Shown: one piece after another, positions 1,662-37,410 of the stretch
Layout: each line of letters starts with the position of its first letter
Position numbering within the stretch: position 1 is the first letter of the stretch
Virus record (IMG/VR): IMGVR_UViG_3300037585_004733
Location: 1-56,444 of that record
DNA length: 56,444 nt
Source of the DNA: a virus
Taxonomy: Duplodnaviria; Caudoviricetes
Reading direction: 5' to 3' (one strand)
The notes under the pieces: generated by a model
Databases searched by the model: none
What the model was told of the DNA's origin: nothing
The model's input: only the letters and a program-made list of their open reading frames with translations
Made by a program: the position numbers and the translations under genes

Positions 1662-1785
1662 AAAAGAATCTAAGCCAAAGACTCGAAACTGGAAAGATTA
1701 TGATCAAGAGAGTGTATTATTATATTCCTATTTAAAGAAAAAGGGAAAGCATAAGCGTGCCGAAGAAAATAAAAAGAGTAAATAA
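1654..1785 (+). CDS. Small basic hypothetical protein (43 aa)
   Basis: Manual translation MTKKESKPKTRNWKDYDQESVLLYSYLKKKGKHKRAEENKKSK; fills the gap between neighbours. Confidence 0.35.
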   Translation: MTKKESKPKTRNWKDYDQESVLLYSYLKKKGKHKRAEENKKSK

Positions 1786-7333: not shown

Positions 7334-8823
7334 TGTCAAATATAAACCATTTAAATAAAACTAAAGGATTCCGGGTAAAAGTATCAAAAAAGCTACCCAA
7401 AGACAGCGAAGGCTTTGATGGTGAAATACGCGTTATTGTTAGAGATGGAGTATGGTTATACTTTAAATATGGACACTCTTGGTATAAGGCATCCTCGCAA
7501 AGCACAAAGGTAAGTGGCAGAGGAGGCAATACTCCAATAACTATGAGTGGAGTGTCAGGTAATACAGCTACACAAATTAATAGCCGGAATAATCAATTGG
7601 AGATGAGTGATAATATTAATTTAGGTACTAATGCTATGTCTTTTAATGGGAGGGGTAAGGGCATTAAGTTTGAGGACAGCACTACTGCAAGAGTAGATGT
7701 AGCTAATACTAAAATTGGGACCCTTGGTAGAATGGTACTTACTGATAATCAATTAGATGTAAGTAGTGGAGACTTAACAATACAGACCGGTTCAGGTGGT
7801 GCAGGAAATATTATTCTAGATGCCTATGGAGGGTCTGTAACAATAAAAGATCCAACCCCAGCTGATTTGTCTCCAACTTTTATTTTACAGTCTGATCATA
7901 ATGGAGCATTGGGACCTCAGTGGTATACTCTTTTTGATTCTGATAGTCCAGCTGTAACTGATTATATATTTTTTGATTCTCATGTAGGTAAAAATGATGC
8001 AGATGAACTTGTAACATATGTATATAAATATGCACAAATACTTAATGTTGAGGATGGGGATGAATGTTCAAATTTTTATACTTTGATTATGGCAAATGGG
8101 ACTTCAAGGAATCTTATTACTGGAACTGGTACTGTAGGAGATTTAGTTAATGTAAGTATAGGTTATGGAGCTACATCTACAGCTACTATAGCAGGTAATT
8201 TAGATATAGATGGGGCAAAGATTACAAGTGTAGGAGCTTTAGAGATAGACCCGGGTGGAGCATTATCAGTTACAGGACAGGACCTTATTATTGATGCTGC
8301 AAAATACCTTCGCTTAGATGGGAGTGCTTCAGGGAATACATATATATATGAAGCAACTGCTGATACGGTCAGGCATGTTGTAGGTGGAACTAACGTTATG
8401 GTATTGTCTGATAACGGTGGCGATGGAAATGAAGTTGCCTTTGGAGGTTGTGCAGGGTTTACTCAACTAGAACCCAGCTATGATGCAGTAGCCACTATTG
8501 TAGACTTTAGGAAATCAAATAAACAGAATGTAACATTTGGGGCTGGAAACATAGGGCATGTCATATTTTACTTCCCTGAAGTATCAGGCAATTTTCAGCT
8601 ATTATTAAAACAGGATGGCACAGGAAGTAGAACTATTACAGGTCTTTATAAAGTTTATGCATTTGATGAAACTATTGCTGAGGGAGAAGGTCAAGTTAAA
8701 TGGGCAGGTGGCTCTGCTCCAACATTAACAACAGATGCTAATCATGTTGATATATTGTCATTTTATTGGGATGCTGAGAATGAAATAGTTTATGGTGTAG
8801 CAACATTGGATTTTCAATTCTAA
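7333..8823 (+). CDS. Tail fibre/spike-like structural protein
   Basis: Gly/Thr/Asp-rich beta composition; C-terminal QDGTGSRTIT...VKWAGGSAPTLTT...DILSFYWD domain typical of phage fibres. Confidence 0.65.
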   Translation: MSNINHLNKTKGFRVKVSKKLPKDSEGFDGEIRVIVRDGVWLYFKYGHSWYKASSQSTKVSGRGGNTPITMSGVSGNTATQINSRNNQLEMSDNINLGTNAMSFNGRGKGIKFEDSTTARVDVANTKIGTLGRMVLTDNQLDVSSGDLTIQTGSGGAGNIILDAYGGSVTIKDPTPADLSPTFILQSDHNGALGPQWYTLFDSDSPAVTDYIFFDSHVGKNDADELVTYVYKYAQILNVEDGDECSNFYTLIMANGTSRNLITGTGTVGDLVNVSIGYGATSTATIAGNLDIDGAKITSVGALEIDPGGALSVTGQDLIIDAAKYLRLDGSASGNTYIYEATADTVRHVVGGTNVMVLSDNGGDGNEVAFGGCAGFTQLEPSYDAVATIVDFRKSNKQNVTFGAGNIGHVIFYFPEVSGNFQLLLKQDGTGSRTITGLYKVYAFDETIAEGEGQVKWAGGSAPTLTTDANHVDILSFYWDAENEIVYGVATLDFQF

Positions 8824-11499: not shown

Positions 11500-13275
11500 A
11501 TGGCAAGAACCCCCGCACAAGAATTTATGAGAGGTATAAATGCGGAGTCATCTGATTTAGATGATCAGCTAGCTAGTACAGTAGGTGGTATTATGAATCA
11601 ACTGCCTTCCTTGTTAATGAACTATAGCTTGAAAGAAGATGCATTAGCAAAATCTATTGCTACAAAGTCTGCTGAAAATATACTATTAAAGTCTAGCAAG
11701 TTCACTGATAGCAAGCAATACGAAGATAGCATTTCCTATGTTGAGAATTTATTTGCAGAGCATGGTGATGATCTTACTATGACTGCAGTTAGAAATAATG
11801 CATTAGAAGCTTTAAATGAAAATATGTTTAACTTTAATGAAAATGAAAGTGCTACTATTAAGCTTAATTCTTTATTAAGTGATGAGCGTACAGCAAGAAC
11901 TGCATTAGATACTGATGCATATAGAGAAGTTATTAATGACTTTACTTCAATTTTTAATGCTAAGAAAAATTTTCTATCAAAGCAGGCTATTAATAGTTAC
12001 AGTGAAAAACAAGATGATATGTTGAGCTGGTTAGATCATGCTATTTTAACTATGAGTTGGGATGATGATCTAGAATCTCCAGGCCTACAAACTGCAGATA
12101 AAAATATTGAAATGTCTGGGCATGCATTAAAGTTAAATGACTTGAAGGCTGCATTTAAATACCTAGGAGAGGCAGGTAAAGGTATAGCTGCTGGGTCTGA
12201 ACATGCTGCTTATGCTGCTGCAGTACCACAATTAATAACAATAGGTAAGCAACATAATGCATCTGTAGATAAACTTACAAATCAAAAGTATGCTAAATGG
12301 GTATATAAATTCCCCATTCCTAGTCAGGCAAATGCATCTGATTCTAAGGCAATGAAAATGATGGGGCAACAAGTTGAAGTTCAATTGAGTAATATCCTTA
12401 AAGACACTACTGTTAAAGAATTAAAAGATGATGAAGGGATTCCTCTTGCTTCTGATAGCAACAAAAGCATATTAGGGATTATTCAATATCTAGAAGACCA
12501 AGGCGTATGGATGGACATGAATGCCGCAGTTCCTATGCTAGATCAAGTCTTAAACTTTAAGGGAACGGGCAAAGACGTAGAAAGACATGAAGCTATTAAC
12601 TTTTATTTTGGATTGCAAATGTATGATCAGTATTATCAAACTGGAGCGATAGCTAATATGGCAGCGGCTAACGCAGGGCAAAGCTTTGCAGGAGACTTAC
12701 AGGAGTTTGCTACGACAGCCGCTACTGTTAGCGATAGTGTAAATACTAATTTTAATGAAATTGAAGATGTTAGTAATCTTGTTCCTGTTGGGAATGATGA
12801 GTTTGGAACTCCTATATATCAACGTAGAGATACATGGGATATGGACCAGATTGATAAGGTAAATCAAAATAAAGCAGTACAAGATTCTTTGAAACAACAA
12901 CATTTAGATGCTTTGGTTGCATTAGATAGTCTAGCCTCTACATCTACACCTACTACCATTCCTATTGATCCTGGTAATGTAGGATTTGATCGAAGACAAG
13001 CACATCAATCAGCAGAAGGACTACTTGGGCTTGATACCGATAGCTACAGAGAGGATTTAGTACTTGACTCAACTGGGAAAACACTAGGTGCAAATATTAT
13101 TGAAAGATTGCAAGCTCGAACAGGAGATACATTAAGTGATATTCTCGTAAATCAATCACTCGATGATAATGAAACTAGCATGATAATTGAAGAATTATTT
13201 AATAATAGCATGAAGTATTTTGGACAAGAGTTTGAATCAATTGAGGCGATGCTAGCAGAAATTATGAATCAATAG
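11500..13275 (+). CDS. Putative internal virion/ejection protein
   Basis: 591 aa, helical, no Cys, strong AAGGAG RBS. Confidence 0.55.
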   Translation: MARTPAQEFMRGINAESSDLDDQLASTVGGIMNQLPSLLMNYSLKEDALAKSIATKSAENILLKSSKFTDSKQYEDSISYVENLFAEHGDDLTMTAVRNNALEALNENMFNFNENESATIKLNSLLSDERTARTALDTDAYREVINDFTSIFNAKKNFLSKQAINSYSEKQDDMLSWLDHAILTMSWDDDLESPGLQTADKNIEMSGHALKLNDLKAAFKYLGEAGKGIAAGSEHAAYAAAVPQLITIGKQHNASVDKLTNQKYAKWVYKFPIPSQANASDSKAMKMMGQQVEVQLSNILKDTTVKELKDDEGIPLASDSNKSILGIIQYLEDQGVWMDMNAAVPMLDQVLNFKGTGKDVERHEAINFYFGLQMYDQYYQTGAIANMAAANAGQSFAGDLQEFATTAATVSDSVNTNFNEIEDVSNLVPVGNDEFGTPIYQRRDTWDMDQIDKVNQNKAVQDSLKQQHLDALVALDSLASTSTPTTIPIDPGNVGFDRRQAHQSAEGLLGLDTDSYREDLVLDSTGKTLGANIIERLQARTGDTLSDILVNQSLDDNETSMIIEELFNNSMKYFGQEFESIEAMLAEIMNQ

Positions 13276-13284
13276 GAGAGAGAA

Positions 13285-16200
13285 TTGATACCGGGCATTC
13301 AAGCACATAATCCTAATACGTTAAATGATAGCACTTCTAAGCGAACTGTAGCTGAATTTGATACATGGTTTCGTAATAAATATGGCGATACTATATTACC
13401 TGGATTAACAGGTAGTGAGTTAGCTTATTATGCTGACAGAGAGATGTATAGCAACCAATTACTTCCGATGCTACATGACTTTAATATGGGTGGCAATTCT
13501 AACTCCAAACCAAAAATCTCAACGTCTCTAGTTAAAGAGGATGCGGGTTTTATTAACGGCTCAAAGTATACCCAAGATGATTGGAGATCTGATCCGGAAG
13601 AAGTAAAGCAACATAAGCAAGATATATTAGATGAGTCTTGGACTCAAGCAATATGGGATGAAGCTATTAGACCATTATTTAATCTCATTCCAGGGCATGC
13701 TGATCAACCAGAAGGCACAGCAAACCCAGTGCATGTATATGGTCATAAGTTTAGAGAGATGATTAATTTCGCTCCTGAATTTGGGATAGCTGAACTTGCT
13801 AATATACTTGATGTAGGGGCTCATATGCAGGGTATGCAGGGTATGGCTGAAGGATATACAAAGGCCTTGGGTGGAGGTATTCCAGGAGCATATACCCCCG
13901 GAATAATGCCACAAGGGGCAGAACAGGCATTAACTCAGGGAGCTGAATATGATCCCGAGAATGACCCTTATAACGACTTAAAAGAATTAGTCCAGGATAA
14001 TGATAAGCTAAACGAAACATTATATATGCTTAGGCATAAAGCTTATGAGTGGTATAATGATTCAGAGGCTGAACGTAAAGCACGTGAAGCTAGAGATCCA
14101 GCCATACAAGCATATAATAAATGGGTAGAGAGTGAGCCTGCTACTGCTAAAAACTTCTGGCATCCACATATGATTACTCGTGGATTTACTGAGGTTGCCC
14201 CTAGCGTTACGCTAGCTGTATTACCAGGAGTTGCATTAAGAGTAGGTGCAGGCTTAGTAGGTAGGCAAGCAGCTGGAATGCAAGTTGCAGGTATGATACA
14301 GGGAGGCAAAATTGGAACAGCAATGGAGACTATTGGTGGAGCTACTTATTCTGTAACTAATGCAATGTCTACACTTTCTGGCTATATGTCTATTCCTATG
14401 ATTATGGCGATGGAAGGTGGTTCAGAGTTCCAAGAGTCCATGTATTACCTTACAAAAGATCCTGAAGGACCACAACTCCCTCCACAAAAAGCAGTGCCTA
14501 TTGCTGGTACTGTTTCTACAGCATATTCTTTTATGTCTGGGTCTGCAGAAAAATTTCAGTTGGGAATTTTTGCTAAGTATCTTGGCATGGAAAAACAAGC
14601 TAAAAAATCATTTCTTACTGCTCTTTCCAGAAGACTTTTTATGAACTCTGAAAAATATGGTGGATGGGAGAAGTTCTTGCAAAAGGCTGGTACAGGTGGG
14701 CAATTACTTACTGATAATTTTATTGAAGCTGGTGTTGAATCTACGCAAACTGTTATGCAATTAATTACTAATGAGGCATTAAGAAATGGGATTGCTCAAC
14801 ATCCTGATAGAGCTTTAGAATTACTTGCCAAGCAAGTATGGGAAACTAATTACAGAGAGATGTATTTTGAAAATCCTGAAGTAACTCAAACATTCTGGCA
14901 ATCGTTTGCAGGTATGGCTCCTATGACTGTAGGCTCTCATTATGCCGGTAAATCTTTGTCTAATGATGAGATGTTTAAGGATCTACTTATGGATGGCCAT
15001 AAGATATCGGTAGAGCAAAAAGGCAATAACGTCAAGGTATTAGTAAACGAAGAGGTAATTACTGACTTAGACTTTGATAGCCCAGGACAAGCACAAGGAT
15101 TTAAAAAAGATTTAGATCAAGGGCTTAATGATAATGCTCCACAGTTTTCGCAACCATTTAAAGATTTTAATATTCAAGATATAGAAACTCCAGAGCAAAT
15201 GGCTCATGCACTTTCTGTTACCTTATGGAAAGGTAAGCATAGTGAGGATGGCAAAGCTCATTCCCAAGCTGGTAAGCCTATGATTAGTTATTGGCATTCA
15301 TTGCGTAGAGGCAATATGCCAGATACTACCCCAAGAGAAAATGATTCTCCGGAAGAAGCTGCTCGTAAGATTACTCAAGGGGTATTAATACAAGCTAAAT
15401 CTAATCCTGCAAACGTTAGGCAATGGCTGGCAAAGCTTATCCAAGGTATAGGTAGGATTGATAAAAAGAGAGCTGCAAATCTTATTAATAATCTTGAGAT
15501 ACCAGAATCTTTAAAAATAGAAATTGCTCAAGATATTGCTAGTCATAGTAAGGGAGAAAAGAAGGCACGTATTGGTGGAGAGGGCGATGGAACAAAAAGT
15601 TCTACTGAAATCTTAGATGATGTTCCTGATCAAGCATATATTGACGACTTAGCTGATCCTGATTCCAATGCATTAGATTCTGATGTAGATGTAGCATTAA
15701 GAGAAGCTGGCTTTGAATTTACCCTTGGAGAAGCTAATAGTTCTAGACAAGATTATAATACTGATGTTCTAAATGAACCTGAAATGGATGATCCTGATTT
15801 TGCTCAAAAGAATAGTGAGGAAAAACAATTCGAGCGAGATGTAAGAAATGCTCAATCTAACCTAGCAGCTCAAATTACTGCCATGAATTTGGACGTTAAT
15901 ACTTTAAAGGATGAGAAATTAGCACAAGCATTAATGCGTATGGTTGCTATTGGCTTGGATTCACAGACTGTATTATCAGCGCTTTCAGGTCGTAAGGCTG
16001 ATCCTTCTAAAGGAATAGAAGCTAAGGCTAAGTTAAGTAATACTAAACTAAATAAGCTTCAAAAGTCTTTAGGTCTAGGGTTTTCCAAGCAAGATATTTC
16101 TACTAATAGACCTAAGGTTGAGAATGCAGTTGTTGCTGAAATTGAAAAGCAAGCAGCCAAAGGCATTGTAGAGCCAGTAGTAGAAGATACTCCAGCTCCA

Positions 16201-16698
16201 GTTGTTGATTCTAAGACCGTAGAAGGCTTTGTAAAGGCCAATAAAAAAGTTCTGGATGAAGTACTTAAGACGAAAAAAGACAGCCTTATAGATGGCTCTA
16301 TTGCTGCAATACTACCCCAAGATGCATCTTACGGTGTAGATGAGGTAAGAGCACAGCTTGGACTAAAAGAGACAGTTCCTCAAGAGTCTCCAGTTGAAGA
16401 GGCGCCTTCGGCTCCAGCAATCCCAGAACAAGATATAGCAGCTATTATGGCTGCACAACAACAAGGTGTAGCAGCTGAGCTAGCAGATGAGTTTGGGGAT
16501 AATTTTGATGTACCGGTAGACGATTCTAATTTAGGAGATGACCTGGAGGATAGTGATCTAGAGGGTTTAAGTCCAGAGGTTCTTAAAAAAATGAATGAAT
16601 TGGATAGTGAAGATTTGACTATTGGCTCAAGTGAGTCTGCATCTGAAATAGCTTCAGGTCTAAATGATAAAGTTCAAGATGAATTGGGAGATTGTTAA
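13285..16698 (+). CDS. Large internal virion/ejection protein A
   Basis: 1137 aa; Gly/Ala-rich membrane-like middle (EAGVESTQ); acidic tail; its single Cys is the last residue. Confidence 0.65.
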   Translation: MIPGIQAHNPNTLNDSTSKRTVAEFDTWFRNKYGDTILPGLTGSELAYYADREMYSNQLLPMLHDFNMGGNSNSKPKISTSLVKEDAGFINGSKYTQDDWRSDPEEVKQHKQDILDESWTQAIWDEAIRPLFNLIPGHADQPEGTANPVHVYGHKFREMINFAPEFGIAELANILDVGAHMQGMQGMAEGYTKALGGGIPGAYTPGIMPQGAEQALTQGAEYDPENDPYNDLKELVQDNDKLNETLYMLRHKAYEWYNDSEAERKAREARDPAIQAYNKWVESEPATAKNFWHPHMITRGFTEVAPSVTLAVLPGVALRVGAGLVGRQAAGMQVAGMIQGGKIGTAMETIGGATYSVTNAMSTLSGYMSIPMIMAMEGGSEFQESMYYLTKDPEGPQLPPQKAVPIAGTVSTAYSFMSGSAEKFQLGIFAKYLGMEKQAKKSFLTALSRRLFMNSEKYGGWEKFLQKAGTGGQLLTDNFIEAGVESTQTVMQLITNEALRNGIAQHPDRALELLAKQVWETNYREMYFENPEVTQTFWQSFAGMAPMTVGSHYAGKSLSNDEMFKDLLMDGHKISVEQKGNNVKVLVNEEVITDLDFDSPGQAQGFKKDLDQGLNDNAPQFSQPFKDFNIQDIETPEQMAHALSVTLWKGKHSEDGKAHSQAGKPMISYWHSLRRGNMPDTTPRENDSPEEAARKITQGVLIQAKSNPANVRQWLAKLIQGIGRIDKKRAANLINNLEIPESLKIEIAQDIASHSKGEKKARIGGEGDGTKSSTEILDDVPDQAYIDDLADPDSNALDSDVDVALREAGFEFTLGEANSSRQDYNTDVLNEPEMDDPDFAQKNSEEKQFERDVRNAQSNLAAQITAMNLDVNTLKDEKLAQALMRMVAIGLDSQTVLSALSGRKADPSKGIEAKAKLSNTKLNKLQKSLGLGFSKQDISTNRPKVENAVVAEIEKQAAKGIVEPVVEDTPAPVVDSKTVEGFVKANKKVLDEVLKTKKDSLIDGSIAAILPQDASYGVDEVRAQLGLKETVPQESPVEEAPSAPAIPEQDIAAIMAAQQQGVAAELADEFGDNFDVPVDDSNLGDDLEDSDLEGLSPEVLKKMNELDSEDLTIGSSESASEIASGLNDKVQDELGDC

Positions 16699-19600
16699 TG
16701 GCCTGTCCTGTTAATAGAACGGAAATGATTAGAAGAATGTATGATTATGTTGCGCAATATTTAGGCGACACTAGATTTACTTTAGGTGATGCCAATACAG
16801 GCCCAGCAATATCATTGCAATATTTACGAGAAAGATTTAAGGCAAAGAATCCTGGATTAGTTGATTATCTAGATGAGGCAATTGCACAACATTTAAATAA
16901 TGAAGATCTAGTGGTATTATACCAAAGCACTAAACAGCCATTAAGTAAGGCTCCTCAAACTGTTATTAAGTATCCTTTAAATCCCATTGTGGATGATTAT
17001 TTAGGGTATAAAGCTGCCGATCAAACTGATTACGACAATGAAGATAATGGTCCTGCTAAAAACTCTCATATAGGTGATGGTCCAGGTTCTCATTTAATGG
17101 TTAATGATACTACCGGTACTAGTAAATATGATACATTATGGTTCTCTGCCTTAGGGTTAAGGCTTGACAAGCATGAACTTGCAGCACCATATAATGCTGT
17201 AAGACAAGCAGTAATCTTTGAAGAATTTTATGAATGGGTAAAATCTCAATACTCAGGGCAAGTTGATCCTTCTGATAAATTGCAAATGAATAAGCTAAGA
17301 ATGTTTTATCTTGTTAATAGACCTATGAATAGAATGGAAGTGTCTAGAAGGCAAGCTCTAATGTATGTCAATCGATTATTATTTGATAAGGGATATAAAG
17401 AGCAGGGTGATATTGATTATAAAGGACTCTACTGGAAACATAGCTTTAAAGATAAAAATGGGAGAGTAGTTAATCTTAAAACACAACGCCTTGAGCCAGA
17501 ATATGTTCCCACTAATTTTATAGATGGATTGCATACGAATGTAAGAGGTCGCTCTATGGGAGATATGACTGTATATTTTGCATTAGATAATATGATGAAT
17601 CTAATCCCAAAGCAAGATGGAGGATGGTTTGCAACTGATACTTCTAATGAGATGAGTTATTCAGAATTTGTAAACCTTGAGACAGCATTGTCTGAACAAA
17701 ATATGACATTTGTTGGAATGTCTGCTGGCGATAAAGGGAACATGCTTGTTTCCTATATTCTTCCTGAACATCTTGAAGATATTGCCCCTAAAAAAGATAT
17801 TGTTCAATATTTTTGGAAAAAAGAAGTTGATATAAGGCTAATCAATAGTTTAGATGATTTTGATGGAAGCTTTGATGAGTGGTATAGTAACTACCTATCT
17901 ATGTTCGAGTCTACAGACCCAGCTATTAAACTAAATCATACTCAAAAGCAGAATTTTGTAAAAATGACCAAGCTATTAGATAAGTTTATGGTAGCAAGAT
18001 TTGCTAAGCTCATGAAGAAAGAATTAAAGCAGCATTATAATAAAGCTGATGCTGCAAAGCATTTGAATGGGTTTCTTCAAAGTGCACTTGAAATACCCCG
18101 CATGAACAAGACTAGAGCAATACCTATGCATAAATGGCTTGCAGGTATTTTAGCAGGACATGAATGGTATAAAGGTGTACGTGGTAATTCTTATTTAGAT
18201 TATAAATCATTACATACATTTCATAGAATGAAAATACCGGTAACAAAAGGAATGATACTCGAAGAGATGAGTGATACTCGTCACCTTGTATTTGACCACG
18301 AAAATGTAGATATTTATGTAAATGATAAAAAGATAGAGCATTATACTGAAGTTGCAGGTTTATTAGGCGTAAAGAATATATCTGATGGGTGGAGTATGGT
18401 TTCTACTGACTTTTTAGATAGAACAGCTGATAATGCTGGTAATACAGCTGTCTTAGAAAATGATCATGGTACTCGTGAAGTTAAGAGTGTTGTAATGTAT
18501 TTATCTAAGGATGGTAAAAATTATGTTGAGCTTAAGCATTCAGAGCAACAAGCTATTGGTGAGGTAAAAATTACCCAAAAGGGAGATAAGAATGCGTTAA
18601 TAGCACAAACAATTAGTACAGATAATGGTATATTAATGTATGATGGTGATGGCAATACTATTGATATGATTTCTGATCTTGATGTTGCCAAAACTACTAC
18701 CGGAACATTCAGGAGAAAAATTGCTTCAGATAATTTTGCTAAGTTTAATTTGCCTACAGAATCTAGAAGAGTAGTCATACTTCCAAGGCCGTCATCTAAT
18801 CACTCTGTGTATGGGCCAGTACAAGTTCTTAATGCATTAAACTTTAAACCTGGAACTCTTTCTGATTTAGAAACTCAAGAATTAAATGATTTTATAGAAG
18901 CTTTTGATGCTATGATGCATGAGAATAGTGATGTTTGGACATCTACTATGTTAGGTGCGGTTGATGATCCTGATGCTATGCGTAGAATCGTTGGCTATAT
19001 GTATTCAGATAAAGCAGAAGCAAAGGATAATATTCGCAATAAAATGAATGCTACTGACGGCATTGGAATACATCATCCGGATAATATTACGGGATATATT
19101 GCTATGCTAAGCAATAACTTCCTTATAAAAGGAGCACTTCAAGCTCGAACATTTGTTCAAAAATTGCTTGGAAGTGGAGCTACTAAGAATGAAATGGTGG
19201 GTTCTGATTATGTGATGAAGCCAGACCTTGAAGGACGTATTCCATTAGATGAGAATGGAAACCCTATTGGAGTTATATTATCTGCTGGGAATAGAGGCAT
19301 TTTTAATAAAGCAGTAAAAATGATGATAGATGCTAAAGGCGTTGAATCTATTTTATCAGAATTACAGGATAATGAGCTTGTTAATTCAAGTATGTATAAT
19401 CAGATTGTATCTGGGTCAAAAGAGGAAAAGTTAAAGCTTATCTCTAGAGTATATAATAAAAATGTAAGCTTGGTAAATGAATTTCTAAATGATGAAGCCT
19501 TTGATGATATGCATGTACTTACATATCGATCTCCGATTTTAAGTTCTGTATCTGTTGCAGCTAGAAAGATATTAGAATTTACACAAGATGATGGGAATGC

Positions 19601-21143
19601 TGTTTATCACCATCCATCTGATACATTTAAGAGATTAATTGGAGATTATGATATCGATGAGGCTGGTGTTTTTGTAGTTGGAGCTGAATTTGTTCAAGCA
19701 TTATATAAGTTTCAAAACTCATCATTTCATAAACAGCGTTCAGATTATTCAGTAGACCTAGATATATTTGAGCTTGGCGAGGCTGCAGAATTATCTAATA
19801 AGCCAGGGCTATTTAAAGAAATGGTTATGCAGATTAAAGGTCACAGGACTCAAGGAAGCACAACAAATACTAAAAATTTAATAGGAACACTCTCGCAACA
19901 TATTAATAATATTGGATTTAGCGATGGATTAGAGCTTAGACCTAAAAACTTTAATGATAGTATTATAATGAATTATGCTCCTTTAGCTGCAGGCGTAACA
20001 CAGTCTAAATTAGATGCATTAGGGTGGACTTGGGCAAGTATTATAAAAATTGGCGATCAGAACTATTTAAAGACAACAGTAGAGCATGAAATGATGCTCT
20101 TAATTAATGCAGCAACTGACCATCCTAAGCTAAATCTTATCACTAAGCAATGGGGATTTGGTAAATCTCCTAAAGAAGGTAATAAAGAACCGGATAATAA
20201 TTGGCTTGTAAGAAAAATGTTTACTGCACATCGGGGAGGTCAGCAAGTTTCTACAGATGAGATTAGTGGAGCCCATATTAGATTAATGCGTGGGTTTAAA
20301 GATAATGATGGTGAATATCACAATGGAATATTAAGCCAATTTAATTATTCTAGAGTAAAACGTGGTGAAGATGGCCTTGGAAGAAAAATGAAAATGGGCC
20401 AAGTATGGTATAAGCTTGAAGAATTATATCGATTCTTACAAAATACTCCTAGTGAGCAAGCTGAGATACTTACAAGTCATGATCCAATAAAACAGCATTC
20501 TCTTCCTGATTTAAGCATTAATAGCTTAGACATGAATAATGTTACTACAATAGAAGAAAAATTAATTATACGTCCATGGCAGATGGTATTAGATAGATAT
20601 GGCGATGACTTTGCTAGTTCTCCATTTGCATATGAAGAGGATAGGATAGAATTTGCCCACTTTCAAGCTGCTGATAATGTTCAGGATTATGTAGCCAATA
20701 AATATAAGATTACTAGGGAAGGTGCAAAGAAGGCTATTATATTATCTAAGAGATTATTGCATAATTTTCATGCAGTTTTTGCAGAAAATAATAAGTATAC
20801 ATCTGAAGCTGTAAACTATGATGATGATTTGCTTATCTTAACTAAAAACTTTGAAGATGCAATTAAGCAGGGTGTTGATAAATATGGCGATGGATTTAGT
20901 GCATATGTGTCATTGAAGTATCTTGAAGGTTATTATAATACTACAGAGCAAGCACATAAAAGAAAATTGGATATCCTTCCCCCACTTGAGTTATGGAATG
21001 AAGAAGTTTATGTAGAGTACATGAAGAGCTGGGAGAAAGAGTTTTTTAAAGGGGAAATGGTTGTTGATCCGGCTGAACTAGAGAAATATAAGTCAAGATC
21101 TAAAGGACTTAAAACTGCTAATTTAATAGCGAGGTGTAACTAA
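16698..21143 (+). CDS. Virion-packaged two-barrel (double-psi) RNA polymerase, crAss-like
   Basis: Motifs HRMKIPVTKG, SDGWSMVS, VKSVV...LKHS, IDMISDLDVAK, YRSP, GDYDID (19641-19658), INAATDHPK; likely start at ATG 16698 (TAATG overlap). Confidence 0.85.
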   Translation: MACPVNRTEMIRRMYDYVAQYLGDTRFTLGDANTGPAISLQYLRERFKAKNPGLVDYLDEAIAQHLNNEDLVVLYQSTKQPLSKAPQTVIKYPLNPIVDDYLGYKAADQTDYDNEDNGPAKNSHIGDGPGSHLMVNDTTGTSKYDTLWFSALGLRLDKHELAAPYNAVRQAVIFEEFYEWVKSQYSGQVDPSDKLQMNKLRMFYLVNRPMNRMEVSRRQALMYVNRLLFDKGYKEQGDIDYKGLYWKHSFKDKNGRVVNLKTQRLEPEYVPTNFIDGLHTNVRGRSMGDMTVYFALDNMMNLIPKQDGGWFATDTSNEMSYSEFVNLETALSEQNMTFVGMSAGDKGNMLVSYILPEHLEDIAPKKDIVQYFWKKEVDIRLINSLDDFDGSFDEWYSNYLSMFESTDPAIKLNHTQKQNFVKMTKLLDKFMVARFAKLMKKELKQHYNKADAAKHLNGFLQSALEIPRMNKTRAIPMHKWLAGILAGHEWYKGVRGNSYLDYKSLHTFHRMKIPVTKGMILEEMSDTRHLVFDHENVDIYVNDKKIEHYTEVAGLLGVKNISDGWSMVSTDFLDRTADNAGNTAVLENDHGTREVKSVVMYLSKDGKNYVELKHSEQQAIGEVKITQKGDKNALIAQTISTDNGILMYDGDGNTIDMISDLDVAKTTTGTFRRKIASDNFAKFNLPTESRRVVILPRPSSNHSVYGPVQVLNALNFKPGTLSDLETQELNDFIEAFDAMMHENSDVWTSTMLGAVDDPDAMRRIVGYMYSDKAEAKDNIRNKMNATDGIGIHHPDNITGYIAMLSNNFLIKGALQARTFVQKLLGSGATKNEMVGSDYVMKPDLEGRIPLDENGNPIGVILSAGNRGIFNKAVKMMIDAKGVESILSELQDNELVNSSMYNQIVSGSKEEKLKLISRVYNKNVSLVNEFLNDEAFDDMHVLTYRSPILSSVSVAARKILEFTQDDGNAVYHHPSDTFKRLIGDYDIDEAGVFVVGAEFVQALYKFQNSSFHKQRSDYSVDLDIFELGEAAELSNKPGLFKEMVMQIKGHRTQGSTTNTKNLIGTLSQHINNIGFSDGLELRPKNFNDSIIMNYAPLAAGVTQSKLDALGWTWASIIKIGDQNYLKTTVEHEMMLLINAATDHPKLNLITKQWGFGKSPKEGNKEPDNNWLVRKMFTAHRGGQQVSTDEISGAHIRLMRGFKDNDGEYHNGILSQFNYSRVKRGEDGLGRKMKMGQVWYKLEELYRFLQNTPSEQAEILTSHDPIKQHSLPDLSINSLDMNNVTTIEEKLIIRPWQMVLDRYGDDFASSPFAYEEDRIEFAHFQAADNVQDYVANKYKITREGAKKAIILSKRLLHNFHAVFAENNKYTSEAVNYDDDLLILTKNFEDAIKQGVDKYGDGFSAYVSLKYLEGYYNTTEQAHKRKLDILPPLELWNEEVYVEYMKSWEKEFFKGEMVVDPAELEKYKSRSKGLKTANLIARCN

Positions 21144-24100
21144 TGGCGTGTGAAAGAGAGCAAGCTAGAGTAAGTAATGTAATCAAGAATATTGAAGATT
21201 CTTATGAAGAATCTTTCGGACGTAACCCAGAAGATTTTGATGCTCGTGAAAATATTGCATTAGAAATTGAACTAAACAAAAATGATATACTGATAACAAA
21301 AAATGCTCTTGCTATAGAAAAAGCAAAACTTTCAAAGAAAAAAACTTACACTAGCAAAGAAAAGATTCGATTAGAAAAAGCATTAAAGAACTTTGAAAAG
21401 CTATCAAAGAGATTAGATGTAGAATTTAAAACTTATCCTTTGAAGAAAAAATTAATGATTGGCATACGAAACTTAATGCTTAATAGGCTTGAAATTAATG
21501 CTGATGAAAATACATATAGTGAATCTTTTGAGCCTGATGTATTAATTAAATCTATGAAAGATATATTAGTTAAAAGGCATATTCCGTTTAATTCATTAGA
21601 GCAACTACCAATGGCTGAAATAAATTCAATGCATAATTTTATTGCAAAGTCATTTATAAAGCAAGATAAGCTTGAACATAAGAATAAAAGAACTAGATTT
21701 TCAACTCAAATTAAAGATCCGGCTATGGCAATGTTAGATGCAGATAAAACTATGACTGCATATAGATTTATTGAGCGGTCAAAGGATTATATTGCGGATA
21801 GATATGCTCAAGCTAATAAATATCATGAAGAAATCTCAGAAATTGAAAGTTTGATAGAAAACGACGCTCATAGTGGTACCTATTACCGCGTTTCAGACAC
21901 TGCGGCAAACCCAGCGTCCAGAAAAAAAGAAAGTGTCAGGAACATGGTAGCAATGGCCTCAGATATGCTAAACGGTCAAACTAGATACTTTCAGCATCAA
22001 AATATCTATAATCCAGATGGAAGCTTAACTGCAGAGTATTTAGAAGATAAAAAAGAGTATGAAAAGAAACTAAGGCATAATCTTACCAACAAAGTTCAGA
22101 TTAAAGATGGAAGAACTATTGTTCAAGGCATCTATGATGGTGGAGATATTCAAAAATTTACAGATCCTAAAACTAAAAAAGATTTTTATTATATCTCAGT
22201 TAGAGCTGAAGATGGTAATGGACATGAATATTTTAGGGTTTATGAAGTTCCTACTAGAATGATAGAATGGGAAGGTGATACCGGAGTTAAAAAGCGTGTA
22301 CCTCAAATGATGTTTCCTGATTATATAGATACAAACGAAGAATGGAAAAAATATTTCACATCAGAAAATACTCGAGGTAATTTATTATCTGATAGAATGG
22401 ATGAAGGTTGGTACACTGCAAGTACATATGTACCATTAGAGGGAGAATATAAAGAAGCTAAGACTGGTAGATTAAAAACATTTAAAACATCAGCATGGAA
22501 TCGATTTGTTAAAGATGATACCGTAGATAATGCTAATGATCCATTGCCAGACTCTGTTAAGGATTTTGTAGTTCAGATGAGAGGTTTCTTTAAATTCGCT
22601 CATGGATCTGCGATTAGTAAATCAATATCAGCAAATAAAAAGAGAAAAAATGCTATAACCAAAGCAAAGCAAGAAGGTAGAGTAAAGTCTGAAAATATTG
22701 ATGAAGCTTTGGAAGAAATTATGGGAATAGACTTCTATAATAATGTCTTTGAAAAGGATGGTAATTTAATTACAGTTAATACTATAATGGGCCATCGAGA
22801 TTTATATCTTCCATTTAAGTTTAATATCGTAGACACCATTAATAATAATTTACGCACCCATGAACATATCGAAAGAGGTATTGAGAAGATAGAAGATAGT
22901 ATTAATGCTTTAATTGATGATCCTGATGGGGATATGAATGAAGTTATTAGATTAAATGAAGAGCTAATCAAGGAAAAGGATATACTCCAGCACTCTCAAG
23001 AAATGCTTGAAGTTATGACCGGTAAACGAAGCTCTCATGATGTTAATACCAAAATGAGTCAAGAGACTATATTTGGGTTTGCTAGACATAGAGGCGCTGC
23101 TTCAAGTCCAATAGCTAATTTCTATCCTAATTATGATGGCATAAGAAAAGATATGGATGTCTTTTATGAATATGCTGATGAGCTAGCTAAAGTTACTTCT
23201 CAAAATGAATTGAAATCAGATTTAATTGAGCCAATGATTTATACTAAGGGAGACAATACCAAACGGTATTTAATAAGTCAGTTAAAAGCTACATTTGGAC
23301 AATTAGATGCTGGTGCTGAGCTATTTTTCTTTAAATATGGAGATGAACAACTAGCAGATATATTAAGCAAAATGCCGGGAGTAAATATTAGTCCAGAAGG
23401 ATTATATTTCTTCTTAAAAAGTAATAGTGCATTAGTTAGTGGAAATTTGCTTGGGGCAGGATCTGCTATGAATAATAACTTTCAAAGATTTAGTATCTAT
23501 ATGAAAGCTAATGTTCAACTACAGCTTGCTATTGATGATTTACCTCAAGCAACTAAAGATATGATTGTTAAAAAATCTGGAACTGATGATGTAATGCAGA
23601 TGATTGGAGATGCACTGATTAGTGCTACAGGGGAGGAGCCGTCATTCTTTACTGGCATGCATACTAAAAAAGATTTAGCTTTATTGTGGCTAACGCCAAA
23701 AATGTTCTTAGCTAGGTCATTAAAGAATAATGGTTTCTGGATGAGATGGATTGAGAAGGTTATAGAACGTGGAGGTAATGATGCTAATGCTGCTGGAAGA
23801 AGAGTTTTTATGCGTGGTGTATATGATTTAGCTCATGGATTAGCCGAAGGAAGTGTTAACAAGAAAACAGAAAAGGCAATCATTAGTAAACTTAAAAGAG
23901 TCATGACTACTGATATGATTAATACATTCTTGCATTGGGGATTACGTGGTGGTTGGATGTATAATATATTTAAAAGAACTAATTTAGGTAAATCTTTTAG
24001 TTTTATGGAATCTGAAGGAGAAATGCGTAAGGAATCATCTGTAATGGGAGCTTTAATGACTGTAGCTCAGCTTAAGAATGAAGCAGGATGGAAAGAGTGG

Positions 24101-24829
24101 GAAAGAGAGGAAGGAAAATCTAGATATGAGCATCCAGAGGTTCTTGCTGGCGCAAGAAATCTTACTAATGCTACTATGTTTGGTATGTCACAACAGTTTC
24201 AACCTCTATTTTTACGTGGAGCTATGGGACAAACTTTATTTAAATTTTGGAATTATACTCGTGCAGAGGCTGCTTTAGAATGGAATACTTGGAGATCTTA
24301 TCGAGATAGCTTGCAGAAACTCCCATTAAATGAACGTAAAAGAATATACGGTCAGATCTTTACAAATGATGTAGAAAGCATGCATCCATCTATGCAAGGT
24401 TGGGCTAAAATGTTAAGAACAAGAGTTTTAGTGTCAACGGCTGTTATAGCCGGCCAAATATACTTACCTATTTTTACAGAAGCAAGTAAATGGGGGATGA
24501 AATTAGGTGGGAAAATGTTAGGGACATCATTTGGAAGTATACGTCGTGGTGGTAGTTCTATTGTGGCTGATACAGCATTCAGAGGTATAGGTCTTATACT
24601 TAAATCATTTGCAATATATGGCAATGATAAAGATGATGACGAATATTATCGAGAATCAATGCGATATTTTCTTCCTATATATATGAATATGGTAATAGAT
24701 ACATTATGGAGAGTATTCCTATCAAATGATGAATATTCATTAAGTGAAATATTCTCAAATAATGTTACTATATATAATAAGGGATTTGGGAATCTAGTTA
24801 AAGAAGTTGACGGGCTCTTTAGTGAGTAG
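21143..24829 (+). CDS. Large internal virion/ejection protein C
   Basis: 1228 aa; C-terminal helical region (ARNLTNATMF...GQTLFKFWNY) of the kind seen in large ejected proteins; single Cys at residue 3. Confidence 0.65.
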   Translation: MACEREQARVSNVIKNIEDSYEESFGRNPEDFDARENIALEIELNKNDILITKNALAIEKAKLSKKKTYTSKEKIRLEKALKNFEKLSKRLDVEFKTYPLKKKLMIGIRNLMLNRLEINADENTYSESFEPDVLIKSMKDILVKRHIPFNSLEQLPMAEINSMHNFIAKSFIKQDKLEHKNKRTRFSTQIKDPAMAMLDADKTMTAYRFIERSKDYIADRYAQANKYHEEISEIESLIENDAHSGTYYRVSDTAANPASRKKESVRNMVAMASDMLNGQTRYFQHQNIYNPDGSLTAEYLEDKKEYEKKLRHNLTNKVQIKDGRTIVQGIYDGGDIQKFTDPKTKKDFYYISVRAEDGNGHEYFRVYEVPTRMIEWEGDTGVKKRVPQMMFPDYIDTNEEWKKYFTSENTRGNLLSDRMDEGWYTASTYVPLEGEYKEAKTGRLKTFKTSAWNRFVKDDTVDNANDPLPDSVKDFVVQMRGFFKFAHGSAISKSISANKKRKNAITKAKQEGRVKSENIDEALEEIMGIDFYNNVFEKDGNLITVNTIMGHRDLYLPFKFNIVDTINNNLRTHEHIERGIEKIEDSINALIDDPDGDMNEVIRLNEELIKEKDILQHSQEMLEVMTGKRSSHDVNTKMSQETIFGFARHRGAASSPIANFYPNYDGIRKDMDVFYEYADELAKVTSQNELKSDLIEPMIYTKGDNTKRYLISQLKATFGQLDAGAELFFFKYGDEQLADILSKMPGVNISPEGLYFFLKSNSALVSGNLLGAGSAMNNNFQRFSIYMKANVQLQLAIDDLPQATKDMIVKKSGTDDVMQMIGDALISATGEEPSFFTGMHTKKDLALLWLTPKMFLARSLKNNGFWMRWIEKVIERGGNDANAAGRRVFMRGVYDLAHGLAEGSVNKKTEKAIISKLKRVMTTDMINTFLHWGLRGGWMYNIFKRTNLGKSFSFMESEGEMRKESSVMGALMTVAQLKNEAGWKEWEREEGKSRYEHPEVLAGARNLTNATMFGMSQQFQPLFLRGAMGQTLFKFWNYTRAEAALEWNTWRSYRDSLQKLPLNERKRIYGQIFTNDVESMHPSMQGWAKMLRTRVLVSTAVIAGQIYLPIFTEASKWGMKLGGKMLGTSFGSIRRGGSSIVADTAFRGIGLILKSFAIYGNDKDDDEYYRESMRYFLPIYMNMVIDTLWRVFLSNDEYSLSEIFSNNVTIYNKGFGNLVKEVDGLFSE

Positions 24830-35388: not shown

Positions 35389-35617
35389 TTATTAGCTTCC
35401 CATAATGTTTTTGCATATTATTAAGAAGATTAGAAGAATCATCTTTTACATTAGATATTCTTTTCTGCTCTAATGCTACAGCTTGTATAATAATGGGATT
35501 ATCTAATTCAGTTCTATATGTTGATAGTTCTTTAAGTTCACTATCAAGTTTCTCGATATAATTAGATAAACTATTAATCACAATAGTCACTTCTTTATTT
35601 TCTACGTTAAGCTTCAT
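35381..35617 (-). CDS. Hypothetical coiled-coil protein
   Basis: Likely start MKLNVENKEV with GAGGAG RBS. Confidence 0.6.
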   Translation of the reverse strand: MKLNVENKEVTIVINSLSNYIEKLDSELKELSTYRTELDNPIIIQAVALEQKRISNVKDDSSNLLNNMQKHYGKLINV

Positions 35618-36020
35618 TACGCATCTCCTCATTTTTTTGTTTAGAATCAGGTGTATCTCCAAAGCCAAATGATTCTAGTAAGTCACTTTGTGAGCTCTCA
35701 TCTAGATTATGTAGCGTTTTATGGAAATCATTAAGGTCATCCATCAATGTATTAACAAATTCTTGCTCTTCATCGCTGGCCTTTCTACTTAGCTCTACTT
35801 TATCAGTATTTAATCTAAACTGTAGGGCTTGAGTTAACATTATCCATTCTTTATATTTATTATCTATTATAGCATCAGATAGAATAGTAAAGAAATCACC
35901 ATGTTTTCCGGGCACTTTGATAAAAGCTTTTCTCAACTGTATAATACAATTATGAAGCTCAGTCATTATTTGTAAATAAAACTGCGCAGGCAGCTCTTTT
36001 ACACTTTTTATCTTGGTCAT
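35607..36020 (-). CDS. Hypothetical protein
   Basis: AAGGAG RBS, 137 aa. Confidence 0.7.
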   Translation of the reverse strand: MTKIKSVKELPAQFYLQIMTELHNCIIQLRKAFIKVPGKHGDFFTILSDAIIDNKYKEWIMLTQALQFRLNTDKVELSRKASDEEQEFVNTLMDDLNDFHKTLHNLDESSQSDLLESFGFGDTPDSKQKNEEMRNEA

Positions 36021-36069
36021 ATTGTCTCCTTTGACTTTATGCGTTAATTAATTTGTTTGATAATATCCC

Positions 36070-36130
36070 AGCACATAGCCCAAAGCCATTGAAAACTCCA
36101 CTCGAAGTTGCTTTATATGGACTACGCACC
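36070..36130 (-). ncRNA. Small structured RNA element
   Basis: 12-bp outer stem completed by G-U pairs on the minus strand; inner stems AAAGC/GCUUU and AACUUC/GGAGUU. Confidence 0.5.
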
Positions 36131-36141
36131 AAGAATAATAA

Positions 36142-36543
36142 TGTGTGTGTATGCAAGACTTGATTAGTTACTTGCAAGAATCCGCTTCTATCCCCTAGTG
36201 AAAGGGCAATATCCTCTTGTTAGACTGTCGTCCTATCCTTATACTCCCTTGCGAGGAATACATTAGACAAAGCTATCATAGCTAATTAAGAGTGCATACA
36301 CCATGAAGAATGGTTAAGTATGCTTAATACCGGGAAAAGACTAATCTTTTCTATTTAACTGAATCCTACATTGGGTCAGTGATTAACTGTGCACTGTATC
36401 ATTTGATACCTGGTGCGAGTACAACCTCTACGCCTCTCTCGGCTTCCCAATTACCTGCACTACAATCTTTTCCATTATAGCTACACAGGTTTATACATAA
36501 ACCATATCATACACCGGATCAAGGTGTAAGTATGAACACACAA
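36142..36543 (-). ncRNA. Putative large multi-helix ncRNA (about 400 nt)
   Basis: No ORF of 60 aa or more; closing helix UGUGUGU/ACACACA; about ten internal hairpins, including a GCAA tetraloop. Confidence 0.6.
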
Positions 36544-36666
36544 ATTTAATAATAAAGCACATCACATCTTTCATCTCTAAGCTATTGATTTAGATGTATA
36601 ATGTGCCACGATATCGTTATGAAGGCTAATAAACAGGGCCGTTGCTACGATATACTTTTAATTTAG

Positions 36667-36736
36667 TTGCGGGGGACAGAGTCGAACTGCCCAGATCAAG
36701 CTTATGAGGCTTAAATTGCTACCGGCATTCCCCGCT
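36667..36736 (-). tRNA. tRNA-Met(CAU)-like, atypical short D arm, A1:A72 mismatch
   Basis: Acceptor GCGGGG/CCCCGC; anticodon arm TAAGC-CTCATAA-GCTTG; T arm GGCAG-TTCGACT-CTGTC; no encoded CCA. Confidence 0.8.
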
Positions 36737-36743
36737 GGAAAGA

Positions 36744-36796
36744 CGCTCTGGTGTCATCTAAGTGACAAGGTTAATAAAGGACCTTAATCCAGAGCG
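36744..36796. ncRNA. Three-way-junction element adjacent to the tRNA
   Basis: CGCTCTGG/CCAGAGCG enclosing TGTCA/TGACA and AAGGT/ACCTT. Confidence 0.5.
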
Positions 36797-36809
36797 CTTG
36801 AAGAAGAAC

Positions 36810-37106
36810 TTATCTTATAAAGTTTCTAATCTTTTTACCTAACTGCATATTATTAGGAGTTTTATCTACAATCTTCTTTATTTCTTTGGTATAGCATTCT
36901 AAGCATTTATTAGCTTCACATATTTCATTTGAATCAATGATATTCAATACGTCAAGTAGTGCTCCACGATATGCGTGATTAGCTTCATACTCAGTGCATG
37001 ATAGATCACCATAATGACTATCCCATTCTTTATCTATTCTAGCTTTCTCGGCTTCATTATCTGCCATTAACTCTAGAACTGCTGCTTTGATTTGTTCTGT
37101 ATTCAT
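36810..37106 (-). CDS. Hypothetical early protein
   Basis: Likely start MNTEQIKAAV with AAGGAG RBS. Confidence 0.65.
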   Translation of the reverse strand: MNTEQIKAAVLELMADNEAEKARIDKEWDSHYGDLSCTEYEANHAYRGALLDVLNIIDSNEICEANKCLECYTKEIKKIVDKTPNNMQLGKKIRNFIR

Positions 37107-37125
37107 GATTGTCTCCTTTGAATAA

Positions 37126-37410
37126 TTATATTTCACCTTCCATTGCTGCCAATTCTTGTTCACGTAATTCATGTTCTTCATCTTCACAGACAGGACACAT
37201 GTACAACTCACATGTAGGATAATCATGAGGAATAATACAATCATCCAATACATCGATAGTTTCAATATGGATAACAGCAGTATCATTGATATCATCCATA
37301 CGATGATTTAATAAGTTGAAGTGTTGATTAGCTTGATCATAATCACTGTAAGTTGCTTGAACTGAACGACGATTATCTAACTCTGTTACATATACTTGAT
37401 ATACTTGCAT
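37126..37410 (-). CDS. Hypothetical early protein with Cys/His cluster
   Basis: AGGAG RBS; C...H...C...CPVC. Confidence 0.65.
   Translation of the reverse strand: MQVYQVYVTELDNRRSVQATYSDYDQANQHFNLLNHRMDDINDTAVIHIETIDVLDDCIIPHDYPTCELYMCPVCEDEEHELREQELAAMEGEI

Follow-up and report, generated by a model that had tools for sequence, protein, structure and literature searches.

The window analyzed here, 56,444 base pairs (bp) in length, is the complete genome of a tailed phage with direct terminal repeats (IMG/VR record IMGVR_UViG_3300037585_004733), and it carries on its minus strand an element of ~400 nucleotides (nt) that is a discrete conserved RNA gene. The genome codes for a large terminase, a portal, a major head protein, a tail spike, and a primase-helicase. 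The terminase is only ~25% identical to those of the nearest cultured phages and has at least 596 relatives in viral contigs. Twenty-four sequencing runs are listed as containing the stretch or part of it, all labeled marine, seawater, or viral metagenome, and just three of these contain at least half of the sampled words. The carriers of the element are apparently a clade of uncultured, lytic marine tailed phages.

Minus-strand genes surround the element, which lies in 790 noncoding bases between the stop of a gene of 98 amino acids (aa) at 36810 and the start of a 137-aa gene at 36020. The same gap contains a transfer RNA (tRNA) gene, called as tRNA-Met(cat) by ARAGORN. A previous, sequence-only reading had flagged positions 36142..36543 as a highly structured noncoding RNA of ~400 nt on the minus strand, situated downstream from a tRNA and lacking a long open reading frame (ORF). 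The last point holds: there is no ORF of at least 30 aa on the minus strand at 36178-36809, and the only plus-strand ORFs that overlap the element are two short ones (33 and 38 aa).

36141..36543, minus: the whole RNA element, ~400 nt, with its 5' end near 36543 and its 3' end near 36142, as given by the limits of homology and by the closing helix
36666..36736, minus: tRNA-Met(CAU)-like gene (ARAGORN), 120 nt upstream of the element; a neighbor and not part of the RNA

Conserved fold and pseudoknots

When folded as RNA, the 402-nt stretch reaches -118.9 kcal/mol, compared with -98.2 ± 5.3 kcal/mol in 100 shuffles (z = -3.9, no shuffle as good), the comparison that the sequence-only reading had proposed as a check. 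The plus strand does equally well (z = -3.96), and because the two strands score alike, folding energy alone names neither a strand nor a function. The decisive evidence for a structured, functional RNA is covariation, which stands above shuffled and slid controls and does so on one strand. With 14 sequences, RNAalifold returned 88 pairs, and in 41 of these both sides change. A structure curated by hand, by alignment columns, on 46 full-length sequences and tested on a tool-made alignment (A2) comprises 103 pairs, arranged in 21 helices of which two are pseudoknots. Standard pairs occupy 94.6% of 4694 cells (shuffled mean 83.5%), 62 of the 103 pairs are changed on both sides (shuffled mean 44.1), as are 568 cells (shuffled mean 171.5), and the covariation score is 0.400 (shuffled mean 0.191); none of 500 shuffles was as high by any of these four measures.

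In the slid control, for which 3' partners were moved by 1-3 columns, 35.6%-49.8% of cells paired and the score was 0.060-0.086, a contrast that flatters the structure somewhat because it was derived from the same sequences (the counts of both-side changes are unaffected). Treated as RNA, the reverse complement pairs in 82.9% of cells versus 94.6% on the minus strand. Several G-U pairs are invariant or nearly so, and one, between columns 370 and 398, is fully invariant (G-U in 46 of 46 sequences). Given this strand-asymmetric G-U pairing, the RNA is read from the minus strand, the same strand as the neighboring genes. The claim of a structured minus-strand RNA of ~400 nt is thus borne out, the covariation across the 46 sequences lying far above both controls.

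The features below were placed by mapping the structure onto the window, with the registers of H2 and H19 read by hand from the sequence (H, helix; PK, pseudoknot).

36537..36542 (UGUGUG) with 36142..36147 (CACACA), minus: H1, which closes the molecule (covariation and mapping)
36510..36528, minus: H2, hairpin UACACC/GGUGUA, branching between H1 and H3
36516..36522, minus: apical loop of H2, 7 nt, with the palindrome GAUC at 36517..36520
36493..36497 (UGUAU) with 36148..36152 (AUACA), minus: H3, which stacks under H1; 99.6% of cells paired, four of five pairs with both-side change
36484..36490 with 36453..36459, minus: H4, which encloses H5 (span 36453..36490)
36476..36480 with 36460..36464, minus: H5, whose loop is the 5' strand of PK1
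36465..36473 (GGAAAAGAU) with 36333..36341 (GUCUUUUCC), minus: PK1, 9 bp, 99% of cells paired
36370..36451, minus: four-way junction domain, closed by H20 (36447..36451 with 36370..36374)
36432..36443, minus: window-specific hairpin inserted inside the four-way junction domain
36417..36428, minus: H6, loop GUUGUA
36391..36416, minus: H7, loop AAAU
36377..36389, minus: H8, loop UAAUC
36342..36346 (GAUUA) with 36162..36166 (UAAUC, in the H19 loop), minus: PK2, four of five pairs changing on both sides
36207..36332, minus: 3' domain (H10-H17), 91%-99.6% of cells paired, most helices with both-side changes
36326..36332 with 36207..36213, minus: H10
36318..36323 with 36294..36299, minus: H11
36300..36314, minus: H12
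36288..36292 with 36214..36218, minus: H13
36271..36283, minus: H14
36265..36270 with 36233..36238, minus: H15
36240..36262, minus: H16
36223..36232, minus: H17
36192..36206, minus: H18, CCCUU/AGGGG, an optional, variable hairpin found in some relatives and not in others
36153..36175, minus: H19, GCAAG/CUUGC, the terminal hairpin, whose 13-nt loop holds the 3' strand of PK2

Together, H1 and H3 bring both ends of the RNA into contact. In H1, G-C is replaced by A-U in six sequences, and divergent clades have wholly different yet complementary H1 sequences; in the H2 stem, all six pairs change on both sides. The limits 36142..36543 of the sequence-only reading coincide with H1, and nine of the 11 helices that it listed are kept by compensatory changes. 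These are UGUGUG/CACACA (H1), UACACC/GGUGUA (H2), CUAUAA/UUGUAG (H5), GCAC..GUAUC/GAUAC..GUGC (H7), GCAUAC/GUAUGC (H11), AGCUA/UAGCU (H14), the stem with the GCAA loop (H16), CCCU/AGGG (the optional H18), and UGCAAG/CUUGCA (H19). Of the other two, the hairpin GGUUUAU/AUAAACC is wrong, being unconserved in homologs (its bases are part of H3 and H4, both long-range helices), and GAAAAGA/UCUUUUC competes with PK1, the better supported of the two.

Complementarity in both pseudoknots survives complete sequence replacement in divergent clades. In most relatives the 5' strand of PK1 is GGA(U)GAAGAC, with one bulged base; the window and one relative (L135) lack the bulge and have A-U in place of G-U, and two clades (those of L023 and L159) show a compensatory change from G-C to U-A. 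In the L147 clade the entire helix is replaced (GAUAAGGA/UCCUUAUC, GACAAGGA/UCCUUGUC, GAUAAAGG/CCUUUAUC), with more compensatory changes within the clade. The near-invariance of PK1 in the main family is partly explained by the search patterns, which required its 3' strand. The 5' strand of PK2 lies directly 5' of the 3' strand of PK1, and about ten different complementary sequence pairs form PK2 across clades.

A purine-rich segment (S0) just upstream of the 3' strand of PK1 (S2) can also pair with S2. As a local hairpin in the main family, S0:S2 was rejected, pairing no better than shuffles (5.42 vs. 5.15 bp). In the L147 clade, S0, S2, and the 5' strand of PK1 (S1) covary. L147 itself (G015:C1:101500-102700, ~335..745) is a strongly divergent family member from a 104-kb record; its 3' domain is different and longer, and three of its segments have two mutually exclusive ways of pairing.

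Three other pairings were considered and set aside. RNAalifold joined GUAGGA with a 3' UCCUGC, a pairing with no both-side change, whereas the local hairpin H19 has such changes. Kissing between the H5 and H12 loops meets 12 A-G, seven A-C, and 14 other mismatches and is missing in the L023 clade, whereas PK1 is 99% paired. Finally, a UAUGAG stretch resembling a tRNA anticodon is not free to pair because it sits within helix H16.

Borders, homologs, and spread

When the 790-nt gap was compared by blastn with 80 terminase-linked loci, one of them (L004) aligned with query positions 261-674 only, that is, with the element, at 82% identity; its differences from the window include insertions and deletions of whole hairpins. 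At three other loci (L006, L016, and L025) the match covers only the region upstream of the element and stops at the element's 5' border. At L006 it also takes in the tRNA, and at the other two it is confined to the spacer. Alignments show that the loci have unrelated flanks as far as AAAUUUGUGUG on the 5' side and CACACAAU on the 3' side. The borders of the element are sharp, because homology starts and stops there while the flanks are unrelated. No match was found by blastn of the 1-kb region against 50,697 phage records.

Homologs were gathered by pattern scans, which produced 16 and 20 viral stretches and 43 metagenome stretches. Searching with nhmmer confirmed 66 loci with 52 distinct sequences and did not confirm one pattern match (L121). 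A looser pattern added 18 further loci, including four more divergent clades, for a total of ~66 distinct sequences across several divergent clades, and a covariance-model search of related phage records added one more divergent clade. Every homolog comes from viral or marine metagenome contigs, and copies differ from each other by 15%-30% or more. The same covariance-model search found the RNA in four of 15 related phage records (four of 13 among those at least 90% complete); it is an accessory cassette. There is one copy of the element in its own record and a single match in each of the four related records. Pattern scans of one genome per species (185,579 prokaryote species) gave no matches and then, with a second pattern, seven. 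These seven, in bacterial genomes and metagenome-assembled genomes, are attributable to chance (nhmmer and the covariance model both fail to find the RNA there), so that no cellular or prophage copy was found in the genomes scanned.

RNA libraries make up five of the 24 listed runs and contain small shares of the sampled words; contigs from four of these libraries, each of a different study, were examined. These marine RNA runs yielded seven contig pieces of 91-339 nt with 85%-99% likeness, all within 36142..36508. One piece stops at 36142 and another, from a different study, at 36144, both at the 3' end of H1 and without a loose end, which is a weak hint; a third ends in 24 unlike letters, and DNA contigs of relatives do run on past 36142. 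The contigs cover none of 35600..36110, 36518..37110, the 5' strand of H1, or H2, and the uncovered part is not to be counted as evidence.

Patchy occurrence of this kind (four of 15 related records) could also be produced by a feature of the DNA, either a small mobile element, non-autonomous and bounded by terminal inverted repeats, or a site for replication or packaging. Such a feature would suit the three loci that keep the upstream tRNA/spacer module and lose the match at the 5' border of the element. The ends of the element form an inverted repeat (H1), and the palindromes found in H2 loops resemble sites for DNA-binding dimers. However, the element is a single copy wherever it was seen in its own and the four related records, and copies 15%-30% or more apart have kept ~20 internal helices by compensatory change, for which a mobile repeat has no need. 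The structure is also strand specific through its G-U pairs (94.6% vs. 82.9%), and there are matching contigs in RNA libraries. We consider an explanation at the level of DNA to be extremely improbable.

Comparison with catalogued RNAs

No Rfam 15 model matches the window at gathering scores, and nothing is found within the element at expect values (E) up to 10. This agrees with the sequence-only reading, which could not assign a family and allowed for a new class. Searches of full-text literature found no description of the RNA. In the available portion of their article, Fremin et al. (2023; PMC10690425) report 10,006 candidate structured RNAs of up to 151 nt predicted from IMG/VR, among which pieces of the RNA may be present.

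Many loop and junction bases are invariant across the 46 sequences, and it may be asked whether they form the active site of a ribozyme that processes itself or acts on the tRNA or another RNA. The two pseudoknots, one of them a long-range helix with a conserved bulged base, the sharply defined ends, and the nearby tRNA gene would fit such an RNA. However, ribozyme families (group I and II introns, RNase P RNA, and others) are absent among the matches listed for the window and 16 relatives, and no Rfam model of any kind matches within the element. The invariance of the stretch AGUCUUUUCC and of the GACA-loop motif was partly imposed by the search patterns, no cleavage site can be inferred from sequence, and most loci have no tRNA (54 of 62 contexts). 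As regards an intron, the ends of the element pair together and the flanks are not conserved exons. Overall, we think a ribozyme very unlikely.

The manA model (RF01745) aligns over its full length to positions ~54-236 of the element in three of 16 relatives, with 25.4, 19.7, and 17.0 bits (E = 0.00011 for L119 searched alone). The gathering score is 55.2 bits, and the window has no match to this model at E up to 10. A genuine manA RNA, that of phage P-SSM2, scores 181.6 bits; it is a plain 198-nt 5' untranslated region (UTR), preceded by a stretch that by eye resembles a promoter and followed 15 nt later by a start codon. In the opposite direction, a model of the matching domain (R1, 145 positions) gives the P-SSM2 manA 5.6 bits (E = 4.6), less than unrelated matches at 11.4 bits. 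Because the scores are weak and restricted to relatives and the reciprocal search fails, the RNA is not filed under manA, although a distant common origin of the junction domain is possible. The likeness lies in the order of the four-way junction (a 3-bp hairpin with a GUNGUR loop, a second hairpin, AA, and a third hairpin with a UAAYCA-like loop), followed by GGUAG and a hairpin with a 7-nt loop. According to the part of Weinberg (2010) available, manA occurs in marine phages and marine metagenomes. The manA RNA is a leader of ~190 nt that precedes metabolic genes. The element is ~400 nt, is closed at its ends, and has an extra 3' domain and two different pseudoknots; the genes downstream from it vary (ParB-like, PC4-like, HNH, and uncharacterized proteins), and none was found to be metabolic.

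The resemblance to manA bears on the possibility that the element is a cis-acting leader or riboswitch, related to manA, that would control downstream early genes by an internal change of pairing. Same-strand genes do follow the element, often with a ribosome-binding site 25-35 nt past it, the junction, GUNGUR-loop hairpin, and GGUAG stretch are shared with manA, and S0 and S1 are each complementary to S2, with covariation of all three in the L147 clade. Against this, the manA scores are far under the gathering score and the reciprocal score is as low as stated above. The downstream gene varies, being ParB-like at 15 loci, of other families elsewhere, and in the window one for a 137-aa protein. 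The element is twice the length of manA, its two ends pair together, and it has no conserved terminator or helix that would sequester a ribosome-binding site; the main family shows no S0:S2 pairing beyond that of shuffles. We therefore regard a cis-acting leader as unlikely.

Loop palindromes, possible role, and neighboring genes

A palindrome of at least 4 nt is present in 41 of 46 H2 loops, compared with 23.5 expected from mononucleotide shuffles (0 of 2000 as high). It is GAUC in 20 loops, UGAUCA in 12, CUGAUCAG in four, AAUU in two (as scored; GAUC is also there), AGCU in two, and CGCG in one, and five loops have no palindrome. Among further distinct sequences, 13 of 14 have one (GAUC or UGAUCA in seven, AGCU in three, and GAUAUC, UUAA, and UAAUUA in one each). 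Because the palindrome changes its identity and stays a palindrome, and because adjacent loop bases cannot pair together, the pattern points to pairing between two copies. In the portion of their paper available, Kretsch et al. (2025; PMC12286853) used the same kind of palindrome switching (GGCC, GAUC, AGCU) to support intermolecular kissing loops in OLE (L9.3) and GOLLD (L21a). By this sequence comparison, two copies of the RNA probably pair via the palindrome of the H2 loop.

The element invites comparison with the large ornate RNAs GOLLD, ROOL, and OLE, for which recent work, according to the excerpted text of Kretsch et al. (2025), has demonstrated RNA-only assemblies of still open purpose. 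Models of GOLLD and ROOL have no match at E up to 10 in 35900..36900 or in 16 relatives (27 kb in all). Like the element, GOLLD is phage encoded, is often near a tRNA, has several domains with pseudoknots and no known partner protein or function, and shows a symmetric loop palindrome that switches between clades; one example, GOLLD env-38, is of marine metagenome origin and lies downstream from a Met-tRNA (Kretsch et al. 2025, same portion). Many GOLLD members exceed 800 nt by that account, whereas the element is ~400 nt with one closed architecture and paired ends. GOLLD assembles into a homo-oligomeric RNA-only cage; for the element, the palindromic loops of 41 of 46 sequences may be an indirect sign of assembly. 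ROOL likewise occurs in phages and prophages, often near tRNA islands, with several pseudoknots and no known protein partner, and its self-assembly is driven by kissing loops (Kretsch et al. 2025, same portion). The element differs from ROOL in being smaller and in residing in marine, apparently lytic phages, with no prophage or cellular copy found in our scans. OLE is also a large ornate noncoding RNA, and its dimer interface, as described in the same excerpts, includes a symmetric kissing loop with the palindrome GGCC, GAUC, or AGCU, much as the H2 loop behaves. It is, however, a bacterial RNA of ~600 nt from Bacillota that works with proteins (PMC12054373, in part), and it has no sequence or model match to the element.

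Taken together, the element is fairly probably a free-standing, trans-acting structured RNA of ~400 nt, from an uncatalogued family, carried as an accessory cassette by uncultured marine tailed phages. Such an RNA would be made from a leftward early transcript, in some phages together with the upstream tRNA(CAU), and at one locus (L086) a cut at the 3' end of the tRNA would create its 5' end. It would accumulate as a stable particle, in which two copies could pair symmetrically via the palindromic apical loop of H2 to give a dimer or a higher assembly, as in OLE and GOLLD. By analogy, one may guess at a macromolecule of the host or the phage that the particle would bind or sequester during infection. 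Gene neighborhoods give no clue to function, because no gene for a partner protein is constant in them.

A more specific version of this, which we put forward tentatively and with some doubt, is that the RNA represents a new class of self-assembling phage RNA, doubly pseudoknotted, joined through H2 loops into a dimer or a larger RNA-only particle, and perhaps able to toggle between two states. The toggle is suggested by the pyrimidine strand of PK1, for which two purine segments, covarying with it in one clade, are possible alternative partners. If this is so, the family would be the smallest among the ornate RNA-only assemblies and the first that is purely marine and from lytic phages, of a size open to direct structural and genetic work.

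Several observations weigh against a trans-acting, self-pairing RNA. No gene family is constant beside the element at the loci compared, and hence no partner protein gene. At many loci the next gene's ribosome-binding site follows the element by just 25-35 nt, which would suit a leader too. A simple scan found no promoter-like site with a second hexamer just upstream of the 5' end of the RNA and no terminator-like site flanking the element. The data from RNA runs are contigs, which may contain DNA and cannot prove a transcript. The covariation of S0, S1, and S2 suggests two exclusive pairings, a switch or a folding intermediate, that the curated structure leaves unexplained. As for the palindromes, they are missing from five of the 46 loops (four of the L073 clade, and L109) and from one of the further 14 (L166), and they may alternatively be recognition sites, at the DNA level, for a protein or a methylase.

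Large structured RNAs without known function are rare. This family is about half the size of GOLLD, ROOL, and OLE, shows plentiful natural variation, has good comparative support for its two pseudoknots, and offers a candidate self-pairing loop that could be addressed by a few point mutations. It is thus a tractable case for learning what phage-borne ornate RNAs do and why they are sited beside tRNA genes. The RNA also marks a widespread, uncultured clade of marine phages, and its covariance model could join Rfam and improve the annotation of viromes.

The position downstream from a tRNA, given by the sequence-only reading, is correct for the window and holds at a minority of loci. In at least eight of 62 distinct contexts ARAGORN places a tRNA(CAU) upstream, on the strand of the element, and in the other 54 it calls none; eight is a lower bound, as one tRNA (at L123) was found by Rfam and not by ARAGORN and another (at L086) was missed by ARAGORN. 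At L086 (~7350..7426, plus strand), the tRNA(CAU)-like sequence ends immediately before the first base of the RNA, which suggests co-transcription, with the 5' end of the RNA made by tRNA 3' processing. In the window, the tRNA at 36666..36736 is the only ARAGORN call, none being made for a tRNA or transfer-messenger RNA inside the element. The Rfam tRNA model does not match 36666..36736, whether at gathering scores or with E up to 10, yet it gives 36.6 and 39.5 bits to the tRNAs of two relatives (L108 and L123). By eye, the D-arm region of the window's tRNA is degenerate, and it may be an aberrant or decayed tRNA.

Other structured segments flank the RNA and the tRNA on the minus strand. Just upstream of the tRNA, 36737..36809 folds into a three-way stem (-20.5 kcal/mol, z = -3.4, 0 of 200 shuffles as good) that is 83% conserved in one locus (L014), where blastn matches nothing else of the gap. 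The stem may be a further small structured element or a signal for processing. The spacer between tRNA and RNA (36548..36665) is conserved in L006, L016, and L025, and its second hairpin, followed by a U-rich tail, precedes the element in the manner of an intrinsic terminator; it is absent from the sites given by the simple scan. Directly downstream from the RNA, 36021..36141 forms a long hairpin (-30.2 kcal/mol, z = -3.2, 0 of 200 shuffles as good) that could be a processing site or a terminator.

Among the genes near the element, an upstream ORF of 146-193 aa with no known identity occurs in 26 loci, a ParB_N-like protein is encoded directly downstream in 15 loci (the window's copy is 2 kb further on), and PC4-like and HNH proteins are found nearby in some loci. 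The two small proteins that flank the element in the window have no relatives in the viral contigs searched. The 137-aa protein downstream belongs to no known family, and the 98-aa product upstream has no Pfam or PHROG match. For the latter, the mechanical ORF (36810..37295, minus, 161 aa) runs over the end of the upstream 94-aa ORF, and an ATG at 37106 with a ribosome-binding site before it suggests 36810..37106 (98 aa) as the real gene. Elsewhere in the genome, plus-strand ORFs at 7333..8823 and 11500..13275 have no PHROG match, and very large plus-strand ORFs (1858, 1137, 1483, and 1228 aa) fill 1757..7333 and 13285..24829, with smaller ORFs between.

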